Source: a plasmid
NCBI RefSeq assembly: GCF_056712565.1
Contig: NZ_JBWXXM010000003.1
DNA: 64,000 nucleotides
Direction: 5' to 3' (one strand)
The translations under genes and the position numbers were made by a program. Below are positions 1 through 40,650 of the stretch, piece after piece. Below the pieces are notes generated by a model. The model was given only the letters and a program-made list of their open reading frames with translations, was not told where the DNA came from and did not search any database. Each line of letters opens with the position of its first letter. Within the stretch, counting starts at the first letter, position 1.

Positions 1-690
1 CGAGTCGCCTGTACTTCCTGTTGATGCCAGTAATCCGGCTTCCTTAAGCCGCTGTGTGTAGGCCAGCGATACATACTGAGAACCTTTATCACTGTGATGG
101 ACTGTGCCGGACGGTCGACGGGCCCATAACGCCTGCTCCAGAGCATCCAGCACAAATGTCGTTTCCATAGACGATGAGACCCGCCACCCCACGATGTATC
201 CGGCAAACACATCAATGATGAACGCCACATAGACGACCCCCTGCCATGTGCTGACGTAAGTAGAATCAGCCACCCACAACTGGTCAGGACGTTCTGCCAC
301 GAACTGACGGTTTACGCGGTCGCCTGCGACAACGGCTTTCCGGCTGATGGTCGTACGGACCTTTTTACCACGGAGAACACCGGCAAGTCCCATAACCGCC
401 ATGAGACGTGCCACAGTGCATCTGGCCACTCTGATACCTTCCCGTAACAACTGACGCCAGACTTTACGCACACCGTATACCTTGTGATTTTCATCGTATA
501 CGCGCTGTATCTCTTTCTTCAGCCAGTCATCGCGCTGCGCACGGGCACTGCGTTTATCCGGATGATGTCGCTGTTGCTGACAGTGGTAATACGTTGACGG
601 GGCAATATGCAGTTCGCTGCATAGCGGTCCGACCCCGTACTGCTCACGCAGCTTATCCAGCAGTGGCATCATTTTTTCCAGAGGCGGTCG
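1..690 (-). CDS. IS3-family transposase OrfB (integrase core), partial
   Basis: Minus-strand translation gives ...[45 protein letters not shown]...[69 protein letters not shown]..., DDE transposase core; runs off window start. Confidence 0.75.
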
Positions 691-995
691 AACTCCGCCT
701 TCGCAAAATAAGCGGAAGCCTGGCGAAGGATATCGTTACTGCGGCGCAGTTCACGATTTTCACGTTCCAGCTCTTTCAGACGCTGACGTTCAGCGGTGGT
801 GAGCCCGCCATCACCGCCTCCGGTATCCCGCTCATGCTGGCGTACCCAGACACGCAGAGTCTCCGGTGTACAGCCAATCTTTGGGGCAATGGAACAAATT
901 GCCGCCCACTGTGAGTCATATTCGCCCTGACTTTCCAGAACCATACGAATCGCCCTCTGACGGACTTCGGGGGAAAAACGAGTATTTTTAGTCAT
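669..995 (-). CDS. IS3-family transposase OrfA (helix-turn-helix, leucine zipper)
   Basis: 108 aa [61 protein letters not shown]... recognised as IS3/IS629-type OrfA. Confidence 0.85.
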
Positions 996-1149
996 CCTGT
1001 TTACCTCTTTCTCAGGGAGTTTAGTCTCCAGGATTCCCGGGGCGGTTCAAGGATTGCGGAAAACCATGTCTATCCAGCTATGATTCGCATAGATTATGGC
1101 CAGGATTTTTTTTATCCAACACGGACGTAATGCGCAGAAAAACATGTAG

Positions 1150-1340
1150 TAAAACTGGAGATTACCCAATCAGGTAAGTTGGCGCAGAACGCTTTTATCG
1201 AGAGTTTTAACCGGACATACCGAACAAAAATACTCGGTTTTTGTCTGTTCAGAACGCTGGATGAAAAGCGGGAACTGGCGGCAAACTGGTTGTCAGAATA
1301 TAACAGTGAACGCCATATCAACTACTTAACCATATGACAC
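1150..1340 (+). pseudogene. C-terminal fragment of an IS3-family transposase (integrase core tail), remnant disrupted by the adjacent IS
   Basis: Plus-strand translation ...GKLAQNAFIESFNRTYRTKILGFCLFRTLDEKRELAANWLSEYNSERHINYLTI* matches conserved transposase C-terminal motif (NAxIESFNgxxRxEcL...YNxeRxHxxLgyltP); no N-terminal part present. Confidence 0.5.
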
Positions 1341-2116
1341 TGGAAGAACATCACTAACGCCATTATTTGGTCACGATCTCAAAAGGTGCATGGAACTAAA
1401 ACGAGTCTGTTTACAACGCAAGATGGGTTATGTTATAAAGTAACATAAATGAGTTGGTAAGCATAAAGTAAAGAGGATAACTTATAGTGCTCCCCTTATT
1501 TAAAGCATTTTGTTTTTTTTGTATTCTATTGTTAGGCTCAGTATTAATTCGGGGTAATAATAATCTTATTTCACCAGTGGTTAGACAAGAATTTTTTTTA
1601 TCGAAAAAAACAACCCCATCCTTTTATCAGAAAATTGATGCGTGCTTTAGCAACGTTAATCTTGACTTTACATACAAGTCTGTTGATTACTCAGCATCTA
1701 CCATTTTGCAATACATTAGAAGATTAATAAGAAAGCTTTACATTAAATAAAAGAGATGCAATTATCAATAAAATAAGAATATCTCGTTAAGAAATATAGC
1801 AATATATATGATATTTCAGGAAATAAGTAATCATACATCTATTGATTTATAAAGTATTATTGGAAGGAAGTGTTACATGAACGATTTACGCACTCCCCTC
1901 CATTACACTAATAAACACCACCGACTTGGTATTTATAAATTTTCTAATAAAAGCATCATTTTCACTGAAACAAAATAAATATCAATCACTAAGATAATTA
2001 ACTTATCTGAACAAGTAATCACACTCATATGTTATTAGTTTTCTTATTAATCAGAAAGGAGGGATTTATAAACCAGCAACTTTTTTTGTAGGTGGAGCCA
2101 CGGTTGATTTCTGATA

Positions 2117-2515
2117 TCAACCACCTGAGTTTATTTTCGTCGAATGGTAATGTCTTGTCGCACAAACGCTATCTGAATAATTAACTGTAATGGCGTTATT
2201 GGTATATTTGCCGACATTAACGCTAATAAAGACCCTGATTGCTTCATAATCGCAGGATTTGGCCATTTTGTCTCCCTTTAGATAAGAGTTAACAAAATAA
2301 CCCCAGGAAGAAGGTACCGGTTTCCACGTTACAGACGTTCCCGGCATAAAGTGTCCGACCAGGGCCTTATTCGCAGTTACCAGCGCCCTGTATGCCCTGA
2401 TATTTTCTGGAACATGGATGACCGGGGCAGTAATCATACCGGGTTTGACTGACTCCCCTGATATTCTGACATAAAAGGGAATAAATAAAGCGACATGTGG
2501 CCACATTGTAAACAA
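2117..2515 (-). CDS. hypothetical protein (132 aa), not recognised
   Basis: Intact ORF in intergenic space upstream of ompT; no family recognised from sequence. Confidence 0.3.
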   Translation of the reverse strand: MFTMWPHVALFIPFYVRISGESVKPGMITAPVIHVPENIRAYRALVTANKALVGHFMPGTSVTWKPVPSSWGYFVNSYLKGDKMAKSCDYEAIRVFISVNVGKYTNNAITVNYSDSVCATRHYHSTKINSGG

Positions 2516-2609
2516 ACGTTAAACAAAACAGCATTTTTCAGTTGACTACTACGAGTAAATAAAAAAATATTTATCAAAAACAAACGAGTGGAATGGAGTT
2601 AACTTGTCT

Positions 2610-3563
2610 ATGTACTTAAAGATTCTTGCTACTGCACTCTCAGCTCCTGTAGCGTTTGCTGCACTGGCTTCTGATACTGGGCTTTCTTTTACACCGGAGA
2701 AAATCAGTACGGAGATTGATTTTGGCACTTTAAGTGGCAAGGCCAAAGAACGGGTTTATCTGCCTGAAGAAAAAGGGCGCAAAGCCAGCCAGCTGGACTG
2801 GAAATACAGTAATGCGCCAATTGTCAAGGGGGCATTTAACTGGGATCTGTTACCCAGAGTATCTGTCGGTGCCTCAGGGTGGACAACATTAGCTGGTCGT
2901 GGAGGCAATATGGTGGACAGGGACTGGCTGGATACGAGCAATCCCGGAACCTGGACTGATGAGAGTAAACATCCGAATACCCGTCTAAATTTTGCTAATG
3001 AATTCGACCTGAATATTAAGGGATGGCTCCTGAATCAACCAGACTATCAGTTAGGTCTTATGGCTGGTTACCAGGAAAATCGTTATAGCTTTACAGCAAA
3101 AGGAGGCTCTTATATCTATAGTAGTGAGGGAGGCTTCCGGGATGAAACGGGATCATTTCCAGATGGTGAAAGAGCTATAGGCTACAAACAACACTTTAAA
3201 ATGCCCTATATAGGGTTAACCGGTAATTATCGGTATGATAGCTTTGAGTTCGGGGGGAGTTTCAAATATAGCGGATGGGTGAAGGCATCGGATAATGATG
3301 AGCATTACAACCCTGAGAAAAGGATCACCTATCGTAGCGATGTAAATAATCAGAACTATTACTCTGTCTCACTACATGCTGGTTATTATATTACACCTGC
3401 AGCTAAAGTTTATGTCGAAGGAACATGGAACCGTATTACTAATAAGAAAGGTGATACTTCTCTGTACTCCAGAAATTTGAATATATCTGATCACACCAAA
3501 AATGGTGCAGGCATTGAAAGCTATAACTTTATGACCACAGCTGGTCTGAAGTATTATTTTTAA
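2610..3563 (+). CDS. ompT: omptin-family outer membrane protease (plasmid OmpT)
   Basis: Track ORF 2604-3563; ATG at 2610 preceded by GGAG; signal peptide MYLKILATALSAPVAFA; omptin-like beta-barrel sequence with C-terminal ...TTAGLKYYF. Confidence 0.85.
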   Translation: MYLKILATALSAPVAFAALASDTGLSFTPEKISTEIDFGTLSGKAKERVYLPEEKGRKASQLDWKYSNAPIVKGAFNWDLLPRVSVGASGWTTLAGRGGNMVDRDWLDTSNPGTWTDESKHPNTRLNFANEFDLNIKGWLLNQPDYQLGLMAGYQENRYSFTAKGGSYIYSSEGGFRDETGSFPDGERAIGYKQHFKMPYIGLTGNYRYDSFEFGGSFKYSGWVKASDNDEHYNPEKRITYRSDVNNQNYYSVSLHAGYYITPAAKVYVEGTWNRITNKKGDTSLYSRNLNISDHTKNGAGIESYNFMTTAGLKYYF

Positions 3564-3995
3564 CCTGAAGCATGCCTGTTTTTAACTTTTTCATGACACT
3601 TTAAATATGATAAACAAAAGGCCAGCACTTCTGATGGTGGTCTTTTGATTTTTTATAATATGTGGAGGGTATATGTGCTCAACGATAAAAGTGTTTCTGT
3701 TAACTCTTGTATTTTTAAAGATGCTGCCCTGCCACTCTTCATGCATAACGACACAGTGTTATCGACATAAAAATAATTGATAAGCGATGTTAACAATATG
3801 AACTTTATTATAATTCTATTACTCGTCAATAATAAGAAGACCATCCAATAAAAACACACGCAATAACCTGAAGGATTCTGCCGTATAAAAATAAACATTG
3901 TTTTTACATTTAATCTCTCTTGATTTTGTTTAATCATTGTTTATGTAAGATAATTTATTTTTATAATGATCACATGAAAACAAAAGAGGTTAGAT

Positions 3996-5105
3996 ATGAA
4001 ATTATTATTACTTACAGGTGCAACAGGATTTCTTGGTGGCGCGGTCCTGGATAAGCTGCTGGATAACTGTAATAATATAAATTTGCTACTTTTAGTACGA
4101 GCACCTACTCCACAAGCGGGACTGGAAAGAATTAAAGAAAATATGCGTAAATTTAATGTTTGTGAGGAAAGGTTGCATGCATTAACTAATGATAACATCT
4201 TGCCTGGGGATCTAAATAATCCGGAAGCCTTTCTCATGGATCCTCGTCTTGATGAAGTCACTCATGTTATAAACTGTGCGGCTATAGCTTCTTTTGGTAA
4301 TAATCCTTTTATATGGAATGTGAATGTTACAGGTACACTTGCTTTTGCAAGAAGAATGGCAAAAGTGGCAGGACTGAAACGCTTCCTTCATGTTGGTACT
4401 GCTATGTCTTGTACACCTCATACGGGGTCGCTAGTTAAGGAAGAGTCTGCTTCATCAGAAACAGGTGAACATTTAGTGGAGTATACGCATTCAAAAGCAA
4501 CAATAGAATATCTGATGCGTAAGCAGTGTCCTGATTTACCTTTGTTGGTTGCCCGACCATCAATTATTGTTGGCCACAGTCGTTTAGGGTGCTTACCTTC
4601 AACCAGTATTTTCTGGGTATTCAGAATGGGGTTAATGTTGCAAAAATTTATGTGCTCTCTGGATGATAAAATAGATGTTATCCCTGTAGATTATTGTGCT
4701 GATGCATTGCTAATGTTGCTTGAAAGCTCGTTAATTAATGGTGAGATTGTTCATATATCAGCAGGTAAAGAAAGTAGTGTGACGTTCTCTGCTATTGACG
4801 AAGCTGTAGCCCGTGCTTTGAACTGTGATCCTGTTGGAGACAGATATACTAAAGTCAGTTATGACATACTGGCAATGAGCCGTCATGATTTTAAAAATAT
4901 TTTTGGTCCCTGTAACGAACGCCTTATGTTAAAAGCCATTCGTTTATATGGAGCGTTCAGTATGCTCAATGTTTGTTTCAGTAACGACAAGCTACTGAGT
5001 ATCGGAATGCCTAAACCGCCAAAGTTTACTGATTATATTAAATACTGTATAGAAACGACAAAACACCTTTCAATTCAACAACAAATGGAAGTTGATTTTA
5101 AATAA
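3996..5105 (+). CDS. hlyF: HlyF, NAD(P)-dependent epimerase/dehydratase (SDR) family protein
   Basis: N-terminal Rossmann motif LLLTGATGFLGGAV; 369 aa; gene order ompT-hlyF-mig-14 as on ColV-type plasmids; AT-rich. Confidence 0.8.
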   Translation: MKLLLLTGATGFLGGAVLDKLLDNCNNINLLLLVRAPTPQAGLERIKENMRKFNVCEERLHALTNDNILPGDLNNPEAFLMDPRLDEVTHVINCAAIASFGNNPFIWNVNVTGTLAFARRMAKVAGLKRFLHVGTAMSCTPHTGSLVKEESASSETGEHLVEYTHSKATIEYLMRKQCPDLPLLVARPSIIVGHSRLGCLPSTSIFWVFRMGLMLQKFMCSLDDKIDVIPVDYCADALLMLLESSLINGEIVHISAGKESSVTFSAIDEAVARALNCDPVGDRYTKVSYDILAMSRHDFKNIFGPCNERLMLKAIRLYGAFSMLNVCFSNDKLLSIGMPKPPKFTDYIKYCIETTKHLSIQQQMEVDFK

Positions 5106-5167
5106 TATTTATCATAATCAGAATTATTGTTGGTGTTGCACTCATAATATATAAAAACGCCGAGGAT

Positions 5168-6076
5168 ATGACTTTGTCAATTAAAAATATAAAGCGCATT
5201 ATTACGGCCTGGAAACCATCTACATTCGAAACGTACAAAAAAACTTTTGAAAAATACGGTGGTAGTGTAAACATGCATCCGGATGTTGTTTCATACTTTA
5301 TGATACATCATGACTGGAAGTTTGATTTTTTTCACTATGAAAAAGATGGTGATATCAAAGGCTCATATTTTCTGTGCAATGGAAAACAAATTGGGATAAT
5401 GGCAAGAAGGTCTTATCCTCTTTCATCTGATGAGGTATTAATTCCTTTTTCCCCACATGCAAGATGTTTTTTTCCGGATAAAACTAATAAATTATCAATT
5501 ATAAATAAACAAAATATTATCAATGCAACATGGAAAATAGCCAGAAAAAAACAAAATTGTATTATAAAGGAATCTTTTTCACCTAAATTTGAAAAAACTC
5601 GCCGAAATGAAATCCAGCGATTTATCAGGAATGGCGGAGAGATTAAGTGTATAAGCAAGTTATCCGATAAAGAAATATCCAGCTCTTATATATCACTTTT
5701 TCATTCCCGGTTTGGAGGTACCCTACCTTGCTACGAATATGATAATCTGTTAATGTTTATTTCTCACTTACGAGAACTTATGTTTGGCCATGTGCTATTC
5801 TGGGATAATAAACCGTGTGCTATTGATATAGTACTGAAATCTGAAAGCTCATGTAATGTTTATTATGACGTTCCAAATGGTGCAGTTCTGAATGATGAGA
5901 ATTGCATGAAACTAAGTCCGGGAAGTGTCCTTATGTGGCTGAATATAGATAAAGCGCGAAGGTATTGTCAGGATAATAATAAAAAGATGATATATTCTAT
6001 CGGTGCATTCAGACCTGAATGGAAATATAAACTACTATGGTCTGTTCCCTGTAAGGTTGGTAAATGCTTATGTTAG
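5168..6076 (+). CDS. mig-14: Mig-14 family protein (antimicrobial peptide resistance associated)
   Basis: 302 aa AT-rich ORF immediately downstream of hlyF; recognised by position and sequence. Confidence 0.7.
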   Translation: MTLSIKNIKRIITAWKPSTFETYKKTFEKYGGSVNMHPDVVSYFMIHHDWKFDFFHYEKDGDIKGSYFLCNGKQIGIMARRSYPLSSDEVLIPFSPHARCFFPDKTNKLSIINKQNIINATWKIARKKQNCIIKESFSPKFEKTRRNEIQRFIRNGGEIKCISKLSDKEISSSYISLFHSRFGGTLPCYEYDNLLMFISHLRELMFGHVLFWDNKPCAIDIVLKSESSCNVYYDVPNGAVLNDENCMKLSPGSVLMWLNIDKARRYCQDNNKKMIYSIGAFRPEWKYKLLWSVPCKVGKCLC

Positions 6077-6758
6077 AATATGTATAAAGGTAAGTAACTA
6101 TATAAGAGCGTCCAGTCTGCAAATACTCCTCTAAACATGGAGGAGTAGATTTATAATATCATAACATTTACTAAATCGTTTTACATTAATTTCAAATTTG
6201 AAATTAATGTATTTTGATAACTATATATTTTTGATTCCGAAAACAGACATTTCTTTCTTTGAGTCAGGGCTTACACTCAAAATATTAATATTGTTTGTGT
6301 GAAGACATATTATTCAATAACGATGGTGAGAAATATCTGTACTTTTTCGCATAATCTAACCATTTACTTAATTGTTCATTCTGTGAACAGAATCTGTTTG
6401 TTATGTATCAGGTTGATGATGTGATTAAGCAGTCTGAAACCAGAGGAATATGGAGTCAGAAATTTTCAGTTGTCTTTTAAGGGCGTCTGCAGGATTTTTT
6501 CTCCGTTTCTGCCTGTCCTGGCATTACCCCAATTCTCCCAAAAACAGTAAACCAGCCCTCAGCCCGCACCATGACTGGCTTAAGACGGGATCCCAGCGGC
6601 AAAATGCGCCTTTACGTATTTGGTTTTACCCGCAATAATGCGTGATAATCAAACAAAAGGATCCGCGCGCTGCGATTTATTGTCGTGGAAGGATCCGGGC
6701 GTTCAGGTCAGAATACCTGTATCCATAAACAGTGCGTGTGCTACGTGAAAAATAACTC

Positions 6759-7499
6759 ATGAACAATGTCATTCCCCTGCAGAATTCACCAGAACGCGTC
6801 TCCCTGTTACCCATTGCGCCGGGGGTGGATTTTGCAACAGCGCTCTCCCTGAGAAGAATGGCCACTTCCACGGGGGCCACACCGGCCTACCTGCTGGCCC
6901 CGGAAGTGAGTGCCCTTCTTTTCTATATGCCGGATCAGCGTCACCATATGCTGTTCGCCACCCTCTGGAATACCGGAATGCGTATTGGCGAAGCCCGGAT
7001 GCTGACGCCGGAATCATTTGACCTGAATGGAGTAAGACCGTTTGTGCGGATCCTGTCCGAAAAAGTGCGTGCGCGACGCGGACGCCCGCCAAAAGATGAA
7101 GTGCGCCTGGTTCCGCTGACAGATATAAGCTATGTCAGGCAGATGGAAAGCTGGATGATCACCACCCGGCCCCGTCGTCGTGAACCATTATGGGCCGTGA
7201 CCGACGAAACCATGCGCAACTGGCTGAAGCAGGCTGTCAGACGGGCCGAAGCTGACGGAGTACACTTTTCGATTCCGGTCACACCACACACCTTCCGGCA
7301 CAGCTATATCATGCACATGCTCTATCACCGCCAGCCCCGGAAAGTCATCCAGGCACTGGCTGGTCACAGGGATCCACGTTCGATGGAGGTTTATACCAGA
7401 GTGTTTGCACTGGATATGGCTGCCACGCTGGCAGTGCCTTTCACAGGTGACGGGCGGGATGCTGCGGAGATCCTGCGTACACTGCCTCCCCTGAGGTGA
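6759..7499 (+). CDS. int: tyrosine site-specific recombinase/integrase adjacent to RepFIB replicon
   Basis: 246 aa with C-terminal catalytic region ...[14 protein letters not shown]...[14 protein letters not shown] (R..H..R..Y signature of tyrosine recombinases). Confidence 0.75.
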
Positions 7500-9030: not shown

Positions 9031-9506
9031 CGGCCCATGAGTGACAAGGTTTGCAGCGATATGGGGATCTTTAATGGATCCTTTGTTGATCATTCATGGA
9101 TCTGTTTACTGGATCGGGCCTCCGGATATGTGGATAAATCATTCCAGAAGGACAGCGCACACAACCGTTTTATGAAAGGGCTTCAGGGCGTACCTGCTCC
9201 CTGTAACTACAGATACATTGCGCTTCCTCGCCGGTTCGCGGGCTTCGCCCGGTCACCGGTCTGCGGCGAGCACTGTTTTTTCTGATGTCTGTCTTTACAG
9301 GTAATTTTTGACGGAATCTGCCGTACTTCCTGAGCGTACGGTCATATCCGAAGTACACTTCATATGTGTGTTTCAATGCCAGGGATTGTGTATACAAACT
9401 ACAGGTGTCAGCGCCAGTGATATAAGACGGTAATTCACCATTTGGATTGTCCGCTCCACCCAACATGTTGTTTCCTTAAGGTTCTCACACCAGAAAGGAC
9501 ATCAAC

Positions 9507-9863
9507 ATGCTGAGCAGAGAGGACTTTTACATGATAAAGCAAATGCGCCAGCAGGGCGCGTACATTGTCGATATTGCGGCTCAGATTGGTTGCTCTGAAC
9601 GGACGGTCAGACGCTACCTCAAATACCCTGAACCGCCAGCCAGAAAGACCCGCCACAAAATGGTTAAGCTGAAACCGTTTATGGATTACATCGACATGCG
9701 CCTGGCAGAGAATGTCTGGAATAGCGAGGTTATCTTCGCGGAGATTAAGGCAATGGGTTATACGGGCGGACGTTCCATGCTGCGTTACTACATCCAGCCC
9801 AAACGTAAAATGCGTCCGTCAAAAAGAACAAGGAGAGAGTTACCGGTTAAAAGAGAAACGTAA
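9507..9863 (+). pseudogene. istA: IS21-family transposase IstA, N-terminal fragment only
   Basis: 118 aa MLSREDFYMIKQMRQQGAYIVDIAAQIGCSERTVRRYLKYPEPP... HTH N-terminus of IstA; ORF ends far short of full-length IstA. Confidence 0.6.
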
Positions 9864-9989
9864 AGCTGGAGTGCTGACCAAAAACACAACGCCAATCAGT
9901 GATGATGAAATGGTGCAAAGCGGACAGCATCAGTAACGAAAGTATTTAGCGGGCATGAAAATGGCAAATAACGGTCAAACATCGTGGCG

Positions 9990-10510
9990 TTGACATAGTC
10001 GCAGTTTTGGTGAACGAATCACAGACAAAGATGCCATGCACCAGGCTGTTGTTCAGTATGCAGAGCGGGCCGCAGAGAAACTACGTGGGGAGCGTCAGTA
10101 TTGCCGGCAGGTGACGACATTTGTACGGACATCCCCCTGAACCCTGTTACAGCAATGCCGCTGTGGAAAAGCTTTCATTACCCACACAGGACAGCCGGGA
10201 CATTATTGCCGCCGCATGCAGAGCCTTAAACCATGTCTGGCGTGAAGGGTACCGCTATATGAAGGCAGGAGTCATGCTGGCTGATTTCACACCATCGGGT
10301 ATAGCGCAGCCGGGATTATTTGATGAAATCCAGCCCCGTAAAAACAGTGAAAAGTTAATGAAAACACTCGATGAACTGAACCAGTCGGGAAAAGGGAAAG
10401 TGTGGTTTGCGGGGCGAGGAACCGCCCCTGAATGGCAAATGAAACGGGAAATGTTGAGTCAGTGTTATACAACTAAATGGCGAGATATTCCCCTGGCCAG
10501 GCTGGGTTAG
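9990..10510 (+). pseudogene. umuC: umuC/mucB/impB-family (error-prone polymerase Pol V subunit) 3' fragment, frameshifted
   Basis: Frame 1 ...AVVQYAERAAEKLRGERQYCRQVTTFVRTSP* then shifted frame ...PTQDSRDIIAAACRALNHVWREGYRYMKAGVMLADF...WQMKREMLSQCYTTKWRDIP, matching the conserved UmuC C-terminus; 5' part missing next to IS21 remnant. Confidence 0.6.

Positions 10511-39379: not shown

Positions 39380-40650
<1,271 letters not shown>

Follow-up and report, generated by a model that had tools for sequence, protein, structure and literature searches.

The ompTp–hlyF–mig-14 island and its known relatives

The genes arlC (ompTp), hlyF and arlA (mig-14) form PI-6, or the conserved virulence region, in which PhoP activates an operon of hlyF and mig-14, and ompTp is transcribed as a unit of its own (PMC5913352). 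Resistance to antimicrobial peptides is conferred by arlA and arlC (PMC7279240; PMC6854850). In adherent-invasive Escherichia coli (AIEC) NRG857c, the PI-6/arl locus corresponds to what in ColV plasmids such as pS88 and pAPEC-O2-ColV is called the conserved virulence region. We analysed this locus in a 64,000-nucleotide stretch of plasmid DNA (NCBI RefSeq assembly GCF_056712565.1, contig NZ_JBWXXM010000003.1), which we call the window, with particular attention to two open reading frames (ORFs) upstream of ompTp, ORF87 and ORF132. Our results make it very likely that positions 2100–2500 are a dead stump, the 5′ remnant of an IS110-family insertion sequence (IS) related to ISEc20 and ISSfl4, that ORF132 is an accidental frame over this stump, and that the ancestral unit was most likely orf87–hlyF–mig-14. 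This degree of confidence is a joint one, covering the IS110 stump and the history of the island together.

In the window, the ompTp (arlC)–hlyF–mig-14 (arlA) block occupies positions 1417–6260 and has a GC content of 35.8%, compared with 48.8% for the whole window and ∼50% for both flanks. Its genes and their order are the same as in the PI-6/arl locus, and the block is 100% identical to many such plasmids; a 5.7-kb stretch matches pMS7163A and many other ColV/IncFIB plasmids without a single difference. At least 644 plasmid records hold at least 80% of this stretch, and the left part of the block is found in 719 of 5,426 complete E. coli genomes. The block is an already-known ColV/IncFIB virulence island, mosaic in its make-up. 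It is a well-studied marker of extraintestinal pathogenic (ExPEC), avian pathogenic (APEC) and adherent-invasive E. coli, and nothing here overturns the current understanding of it. The genes themselves show no difference from the PI-6/arl locus; what is new concerns the nature of the two upstream ORFs, a second PhoP box, and an alternative synteny in Escherichia albertii.

The original prediction, made from the sequence of the window, described an AT-rich ompT–hlyF–mig-14 block bounded on the left by IS fragments and preceded by two ORFs. This description is borne out: the GC content is low, all three genes are matched by profiles, and the left edge carries IS3-family remains. The features concerned are as follows.

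669–1416, no strand assigned: IS3-family debris forming the left boundary, comprising orfA (669–995, minus strand), an rve_3 fragment (1179–1337, plus strand) and IS3-type terminal sequence to ∼1416
1487–1750, plus strand: ORF87, 87 codons from a GTG start, encoding a hydrophobic N-terminus and a basic amphipathic C-terminus
2117–2515, minus strand: ORF132, 132 aa, recorded as 129 aa in WP_001332050.1 (2117–2506)

The IS3 debris gave Pfam matches to HTH_Tnp_1 and rve_3, and its homology to other IS3-family ends stops at ∼1416. The Prokaryotic Genome Annotation Pipeline (PGAP) labels the left fragments as ‘IS3 family transposase’ and ‘integrase core domain-containing protein’ pseudogenes.

The same prediction saw no recognisable function in either ORF. 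This is correct for profile libraries, since Pfam, NCBIfam and PADLOC returned nothing and the sole PHROGs match was to residues 84–115 of ORF132, but it does not hold for ORF132 in DNA comparison, where homology to an insertion sequence is evident. Conservation across related plasmids had been suggested as a check. We found that ∼650 plasmids carry both ORFs at ≥98% identity, which is uninformative because these copies share a recent common descent; the informative comparisons are with a few divergent lineages.

A probable IS110-family relic upstream of ompTp

IS110-group elements have a long left end that encodes a bridge RNA and a short right end; in the circular form the two ends meet, and their junction restores the promoter of the RNA (PMC11208160). 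Comparison of the two IS copies in their different contexts set the size of ISEc20 at 1455 bp, of which the non-coding left end takes up 232 bp, the coding sequence 1197 bp and the right end 26 bp. These end lengths match the layout of the bridge RNA-bearing IS110 group (PMC11208160). Positions 2110–2454 of the window are 74–75% identical in DNA sequence to the 5′ end of ISEc20 and ISSfl4 (E = 9e-53), with the transposase genes of these elements on the matching strand. The relic divides into two parts.

2100–2266, minus strand: remnant of the N-terminus of the DEDD transposase gene, identified by tblastn with the ISEc20 and ISSfl4 transposases, by alignments and by a PHROG match
2267–2500, minus strand: remnant of the left non-coding end of the IS110 element, 75% identical to the ISEc20 left end over its full length, degenerate

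In the tblastn comparison, transposase residues 1–31 align with 2266–2174 (52% identity; MAKSCDYEAIRVFISVNVGK...) and residues 34–56 with 2168–2100 (65% identity) in another frame (E = 3e-10), and PHROG profile positions 1–32 match residues 84–115 of ORF132. The relic thus keeps ∼56 of the 398 transposase codons (∼340 are missing) and is frameshifted. The first transposase motif, GVDVGK, has become SVNVGK, with loss of the motif aspartate. The frame-corrected 56-aa transposase peptide found no match in Pfam, being too short and too decayed to match. For the C-terminal Tnp domain (PF02371, with its conserved serine), no homology was found past transposase residue 56 in the window, or past ∼residue 86 in contigs L020 and L021, two sister lineages that are 5–11% divergent. 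These lineages keep 83 bp more of the transposase gene, and relative to them the window has an 83-bp deletion at 2109/2110, between TCTGA repeats. As the element is truncated, we consider it a relic and not a function-capable member of the IS110 family.

The likeness to ISEc20 and ISSfl4, which belong to the IS110 group of bridge RNA recombinase elements such as IS621, consists of the left non-coding end and the first ∼56 transposase codons, with order and orientation kept. The relic differs in covering only ∼400 of the 1455 bp, having neither the C-terminal Tnp domain nor the right end. It is frameshifted, has lost the motif aspartate and is altered at invariant RNA bases, and it cannot transpose.

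In the ISEc20-type lineage, conservation of the left end extends from E. coli to Ralstonia, Rhodococcus and Streptomyces, and the consensus fold of this end, a bridge RNA-like structure, contains 64 pairs, 18 of them with compensatory changes. The relic keeps 37 of these 64 pairs (58%), compared with 51–57 of 64 in more divergent intact members, although these counts favour the intact members, since ISEc20-like sequences supplied most of the input to the consensus RNA structure. That bias has no bearing on the loss of phylum-invariant bases: the relic is changed at 34 of the 95 columns that are invariant in intact members, with 23 changes from GC to AT and 3 from AT to GC. The relic shows AT-biased decay.

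As a mobile element, the stump would be inert, because it is without the catalytic bulk of the recombinase, without the right end (which supplies the −35 of the junction promoter), and with a degenerate RNA; it would serve only as spacer DNA upstream of ompTp.

A second IS110-family transposase gene, apparently full-length, is present elsewhere in the window (∼39473–40318, minus strand). Across residues 42–394, its product shares 24% identity with the ISEc20 transposase; it belongs to a different subgroup and is unrelated to the relic.

ORF132 is an accidental open reading frame

ORF132 is an accidental open frame over the IS110 relic and not a gene. Its last 50 codons (residues 83–132) start at the old transposase ATG, and residues 1–82 come from the frame running across what was the left end. 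Intact ISEc20 has two stop codons in this frame ahead of its transposase ATG, so the long ORF132 is a by-product of decay. A search of 5.8 billion protein sequences returned only near-identical copies of ORF132, and the tblastn matches below 60% identity were IS110 elements. In L020 and L021, the ORF132 frame is interrupted by stop codons and frameshifts, whereas the adjacent ompTp of L020 is intact, with a ratio of non-synonymous to synonymous substitution rates (dN/dS) of 0.19 relative to the window.

Among ColV variants, the relic has 4.2 variable sites per 100 bp, close to the intergenic regions (5.6–7.6) and above the three genes (1.3–2.3), and the 7 non-synonymous and 4 synonymous differences in ORF132 are indistinguishable from neutral. 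Current PGAP annotation calls no gene at this position. The original prediction had offered two possibilities, that the ORFs are part of the acquired cluster or that they are decayed remnants. Each fits one of them: ORF87 is part of the cluster, and ORF132 is a remnant, though of an IS110-family element and not of a cluster gene.

Alternative synteny in E. albertii and the history of the island

The comparison with a plasmid lineage of E. albertii requires two further features of the left part of the block.

1417–1486, plus strand: leader of ORF87, 70 bp, conserved in contigs L019–L021; homology to the E. albertii-type contig L024 starts at 1416
1751–2099, no strand assigned: AT-rich spacer, 27.8% GC

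A predicted 90-aa protein, P0045, that is 49% identical to ORF87 lies on contig L024, 375 bp upstream of hlyF–mig-14 and on the same strand, with no omptin or IS110 sequence between. The E. albertii plasmid lineage with this type of locus comprises pEA29_1, L024 and L038–L040, which share the RepFIB/int backbone with the window. Its hlyF and mig-14 products are 86% and 85% identical in amino acid sequence to those of the window. The locus differs in having no ompTp and no IS110 relic, in the short distance of orf87 from hlyF, and in its upstream genes, which are pliG and an S6 (serine protease autotransporter of Enterobacteriaceae, SPATE) peptidase in place of IS3 debris.

Homology between the window and L024 extends over 1416–1752 at 67%, from the IS3 end to the ORF87 stop codon, and resumes over 3923–6164 at 81%, from the hlyF PhoP box. 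These segments define the conserved units as the 70-bp leader with ORF87 and the hlyF promoter with hlyF and mig-14. The leader and ORF87 are the only left-hand sequence common to the window and the E. albertii hlyF–mig-14 lineage; a homologue of the spacer at 1751–2099 was detectable only in ColV-type plasmids, and the spacer is not conserved in the E. albertii lineage.

This arrangement suggests that the ancestral unit was orf87–hlyF–mig-14. Under such a history, insertion or recombination in the ColV lineage would have placed the IS110 element and ompTp, relatively GC-rich at 42.9%, between orf87 and hlyF, and an IS3-family element would have landed just upstream of orf87. The island would then have been assembled from parts, with ompTp joining hlyF–mig-14 secondarily if the rearrangement ran in that direction, and the small gene next to hlyF would be a candidate third gene. 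Repeated IS-mediated reshuffling around hlyF is evidenced by positions 4400–8500 of L019 (Logan SRR15529087), a mosaic plasmid in which an E. albertii-type hlyF–mig-14 (94% identical to L024) lies beside an inverted ColV-type IS3 fragment and ORF87 (78% identical to the window), with no ompTp.

Among the database sequences, L025 (DEQI01000184.1), a 5.9-kb contig of the metagenome-assembled genome ‘Planococcaceae bacterium UBA3370’ (Firmicutes), carries a hlyF whose protein is 100% identical to that of the window, together with a copy of ORF87. This contig is almost certainly a mis-binned plasmid fragment from Enterobacteriaceae.

Alternative explanations for the upstream region

Sequence records name ORF132 variously as ‘outer membrane protease’ (WP_001332050.1), ‘GlcNAc transferase’ or ‘hypothetical protein’, and Desloges et al. 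(2019) described a truncated plasmid ompT adjoining arlC (PMC6854850), which is probably the same ORF; in the primer table of Zhuge et al. (2018), the upstream ORF is named ‘Transposase’ (PMC5913352). The RefSeq and GenBank names, the published truncated ompT, a frame that is open in nearly all ColV plasmids and a transcript from a neighbouring hypothetical ORF would all be accommodated if ORF132 were a real coding gene, whether a truncated omptin, a GlcNAc transferase or a novel protein. We examined the omptin assignment and rejected it: neither Pfam (E < 0.01) nor NCBIfam (E < 0.1) gave an Omptin match (PF01278 and PRK10993 models), and tblastn of OmpTp against 1000–2700 returned only its own start. 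With omptin similarity nil, with the entire ORF132 lying on IS110-derived DNA, and with two stop codons upstream in intact ISEc20, a frame broken in L020 and L021 beside a conserved ompTp, a substitution density like that of intergenic DNA, only near-identical homologues, and a gene call that PGAP no longer makes, the coding-gene reading is largely refuted already, and we give it almost no credence. The misannotation is widely propagated, affecting counts of omptin genes and the interpretation of quantitative PCR (qPCR), and the database names are unsupported and should be dropped.

Some results weigh against our explanation of the region as a dead IS110 stump within a rearranged island. Nearly all ColV plasmids have an intact ORF132 (784 of 873 matches cover at least 80% of it), and quantitative reverse transcription PCR has detected a transcript for pS88154, a hypothetical ORF adjoining ompT in pS88 that may correspond to ORF132 (PMC3438092), although strand-specificity is not stated there; transcription beside a promoter does not make a region a gene. 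A closer intact copy of this IS was not found, and part of the 25% divergence from ISEc20 may predate inactivation. To these is added the bias in the pair counts described above. The homologies, the decay, the broken ORF132 frames of the sister lineages and the alternative synteny are direct observations, and from them we infer the direction of the rearrangement, which could be insertion in ColV or loss in E. albertii. The intergenic DNA between orf87 and hlyF is too diverged for the breakpoint to be placed.

The stump might instead have been retained for its left end, as the source of an orphan bridge RNA or small RNA that is still functional, either in trans with ISEc20-type recombinases or as a regulator of ompTp. 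The presence of a full left-end homologue (2267–2500), in which blocks such as GTAACGTGG and CGCTGGTAAC are still recognisable, would fit this idea, as would an exact PhoP box directly upstream of the stump on the same strand and the possibility that the stump region is transcribed. However, the relic has lost bases that are the same in all members from E. coli to Streptomyces, including the terminal CCCCCGTTA and CCGGGGGGTG.TGTCACCGGG with a 6-nucleotide deletion, and fewer than three-fifths of the consensus pairs survive. The minimum free energy fold of the relic has a z-score of −1.2, no better than shuffled sequence, and that of the ISEc20 left end −1.8, values that are not decisive alone. 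An Rfam scan of 1000–7000 found nothing for the relic and only a chance-level CbSR1 match (E = 0.53). The natural promoter requires the right end (PMC11208160), which is absent here; no good −10 element can be read from the sequence at the usual distance from the PhoP box; and the relic evolves at intergenic rates. We consider a functional orphan RNA very improbable, and a decayed IS110 stump remains our preferred account of this segment.

ORF87 and its leader

The 70-bp leader contains the inverted repeat ATGTTATAAAGTAACAT, a −10-like TATAAA and the Shine–Dalgarno sequence AAGAGGA. It is possible that the leader acts as a promoter, in which case the −35 hexamer TTTACA (1410–1415) would come from the IS3 end. 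The inverted repeat lies at 1431–1447, ∼45 bp 5′ of the ORF87 start, and takes the form TGTTATAGCATAACA in E. albertii (L024 274–290). It is conserved in both lineages and may serve as an operator or belong to the promoter.

When 1.84 billion representative proteins were searched exhaustively with a profile of ORF87, only its own family was recovered, and searches of Pfam, PHROGs, PADLOC and PDB sequences gave only noise (TraE, 16 bits; Cmr7, E = 0.008; gp41 coiled-coil). AlphaFold predicted an all-helical structure, hydrophobic in the N-terminal helix and basic in the C-terminal one, at low confidence (predicted local distance difference test score, pLDDT, of 56). ORF87 is not annotated by PGAP. 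It may be a small, lineage-restricted gene that ancestrally stood next to hlyF, and we put the chance that it encodes a protein at about one half.

In favour of coding, the frame is still open in the E. albertii homologue at 49% amino acid and 67% nucleotide identity. When the 92 observed substitutions were placed at random with their spectrum kept, the frame stayed open in 1% of trials. In the deep comparison, dN/dS is 0.2–0.37 and the differences by codon position are 23/28/41, although most of the divergent copies came from a protein search, which recovers intact ORFs only and is thus a biased sample. The start codon and Shine–Dalgarno sequence are conserved across lineages, and homology with L024 stops at the ORF87 stop codon. 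In pEA29_1, which was retrieved by DNA, the sole ORF87 indel is in frame (3 nucleotides), compared with 16 gap columns in the neighbouring intergenic region, and ORF87 is intact in all E. albertii copies examined. We did not take in-frame indels elsewhere as evidence of coding, since the argument is circular for loci found by protein search and only pEA29_1 is independent. Database entries of 78 aa for the E. albertii protein were considered as possible frameshift alleles and dismissed, the DNA being intact and the gene caller having picked Met13.

These observations have to be set against the alternative that ORF87 is untranslated, with 1417–1752 being non-coding DNA or RNA (a promoter-leader, an operator or a small RNA) or slowly diverging AT-rich DNA, and the frame fortuitous. 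Closer comparisons give dN/dS values of 0.4–0.75, and among ColV-type lineages the variable sites of ORF87 are spread evenly over codon positions (22/23/28), compared with 40/17/125 for hlyF and 34/18/92 for mig-14. ORF87 diverges only a little less than the flanking spacer, and within E. albertii it diverges as much as intergenic DNA does. Two homopolymer tracts, T8 (1509–1516) and T8-ATCG-A7 (1592–1612), differ by ±1 nucleotide in several plasmid records and in many database proteins, causing frameshifts by slippage or assembly error; p1ColV5155 and pAPEC-O2-211A are examples, and a T8 tract stands at the same position in the E. albertii homologue. The missing homologues elsewhere, the low pLDDT, the absence of a PGAP call and the sampling bias point the same way. 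Weighed against the improbable survival of the frame, its conserved start and its constraint at depth, this leaves an untranslated ORF87 with a little under an even chance.

A more specific proposal is that ORF87 is a small envelope protein that evolves fast, begins with a signal or membrane helix and ends in a basic amphipathic helix, and is encoded by the first gene of an ancestral orf87–hlyF–mig-14 module. In ColV plasmids, the module would have been split by an IS110-associated capture of ompTp, which would bring its own PhoP box, and switching at the T8 and A7 tracts would be possible. We regard this fuller scenario as tentative and rather unlikely as a whole. If true, orf87–hlyF–mig-14 would be a module for antimicrobial-peptide resistance and outer-membrane-vesicle production.

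ompTp and a predicted PhoP box upstream of it

Downstream of the relic lie ompTp and its candidate promoter elements.

2509–2525, minus strand: predicted PhoP box with the exact sequence TGTTTA-ACGTT-TGTTTA (TGTTTAACGTTTGTTTA), between the relic and the ompTp promoter
2542–2571, plus strand: sigma-70-like promoter candidate for ompTp, TTGACT (2542–2547), an 18-nucleotide spacing and AATATT, from a consensus scan only
2610–3563, plus strand: ompTp/arlC, encoding an omptin protease (PMC6854850, PMC7279240), from the PGAP ATG at 2610; the longest ORF starts from TTG at 2604

The product of ompTp matches Omptin PF01278 with 399.9 bits (E = 6e-120) and NF008222 with 651.7 bits (cut-off 537). It shares no upstream DNA with chromosomal ompT or ompP, homology starting inside the coding sequence. 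In contigs L021–L023 (∼95.6% identical), ompTp is split into fragments of 80 and 167 aa (9205–10119), with hlyF and mig-14 intact, which indicates that ompTp is dispensable in some plasmids.

Counted from the ompTp ATG, the predicted PhoP box lies 85–101 bp upstream; it shares bases with the TTG start of ORF132. The exact sequence TGTTTA-N5-TGTTTA occurs twice in the 64-kb window, here and in the published hlyF box at 3927–3943, compared with 0.01 occurrences expected by chance, and both half-sites are kept in L020 and L021, where the flanking bases vary. Such a perfect box upstream of ompTp suggests candidate regulation by PhoPQ. Deletion of phoP had no effect on ompTp mRNA in the work of Zhuge et al. 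(2018), whose primer table for the electrophoretic mobility shift assay (EMSA) holds only an hlyF-coding control, while a figure legend mentions an OmpTp-promoter control (PMC5913352).

hlyF, mig-14 and the downstream region

The right-hand part of the block contains the following features.

3927–3943, plus strand: published PhoP box of the hlyF promoter, −69 to −53 from the hlyF ATG (Zhuge et al. 2018, PMC5913352)
3996–5105, plus strand: hlyF, encoding a short-chain dehydrogenase/reductase (SDR)/NAD_binding_4 oxidoreductase (NAD_binding_4 E = 2e-37; dN/dS 0.10–0.14)
5174–6076, plus strand: mig-14 (arlA), from the PGAP TTG start at 5174; the longest ORF starts from ATG at 5168 (dN/dS ∼0.1)
6124–6147, plus strand: terminator-like hairpin after mig-14; homology to the E. 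albertii-type unit ends at 6164

The product of mig-14 matches PF07395 with 281 bits (E = 9e-84) and the NF011840 equivalog model with 602.5 bits (cut-off 515). The ATG at 5168 is ATA in other plasmid variants, and the mig-14 expression constructs of Zhuge et al. begin at the ATG.

Chromosomal homologues of hlyF were found in Klebsiella, Raoultella, Phytobacter, Kosakonia, Enterobacter and Kluyvera (L026–L036), with 66–69% amino acid identity over the full length, which shows that HlyF-type enzymes are not confined to the virulence plasmid. The homologue of Klebsiella pneumoniae ATCC 13883 (L026 4001–5110) is GC-rich and, unlike the plasmid gene, sits on its own with queE and eno on either side and has neither mig-14 nor an omptin gene beside it. 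No ORF87-like ORF was found near the chromosomal hlyF homologues.

Between mig-14 and int lies a 62-aa ORF (6450–6638, plus strand) that is named ‘hypothetical protein’ or ‘serine/threonine protein kinase’ in records. It has no support in Pfam or NCBIfam and shows 3 non-synonymous and 0 synonymous differences among variants; the kinase name is probably an annotation error.

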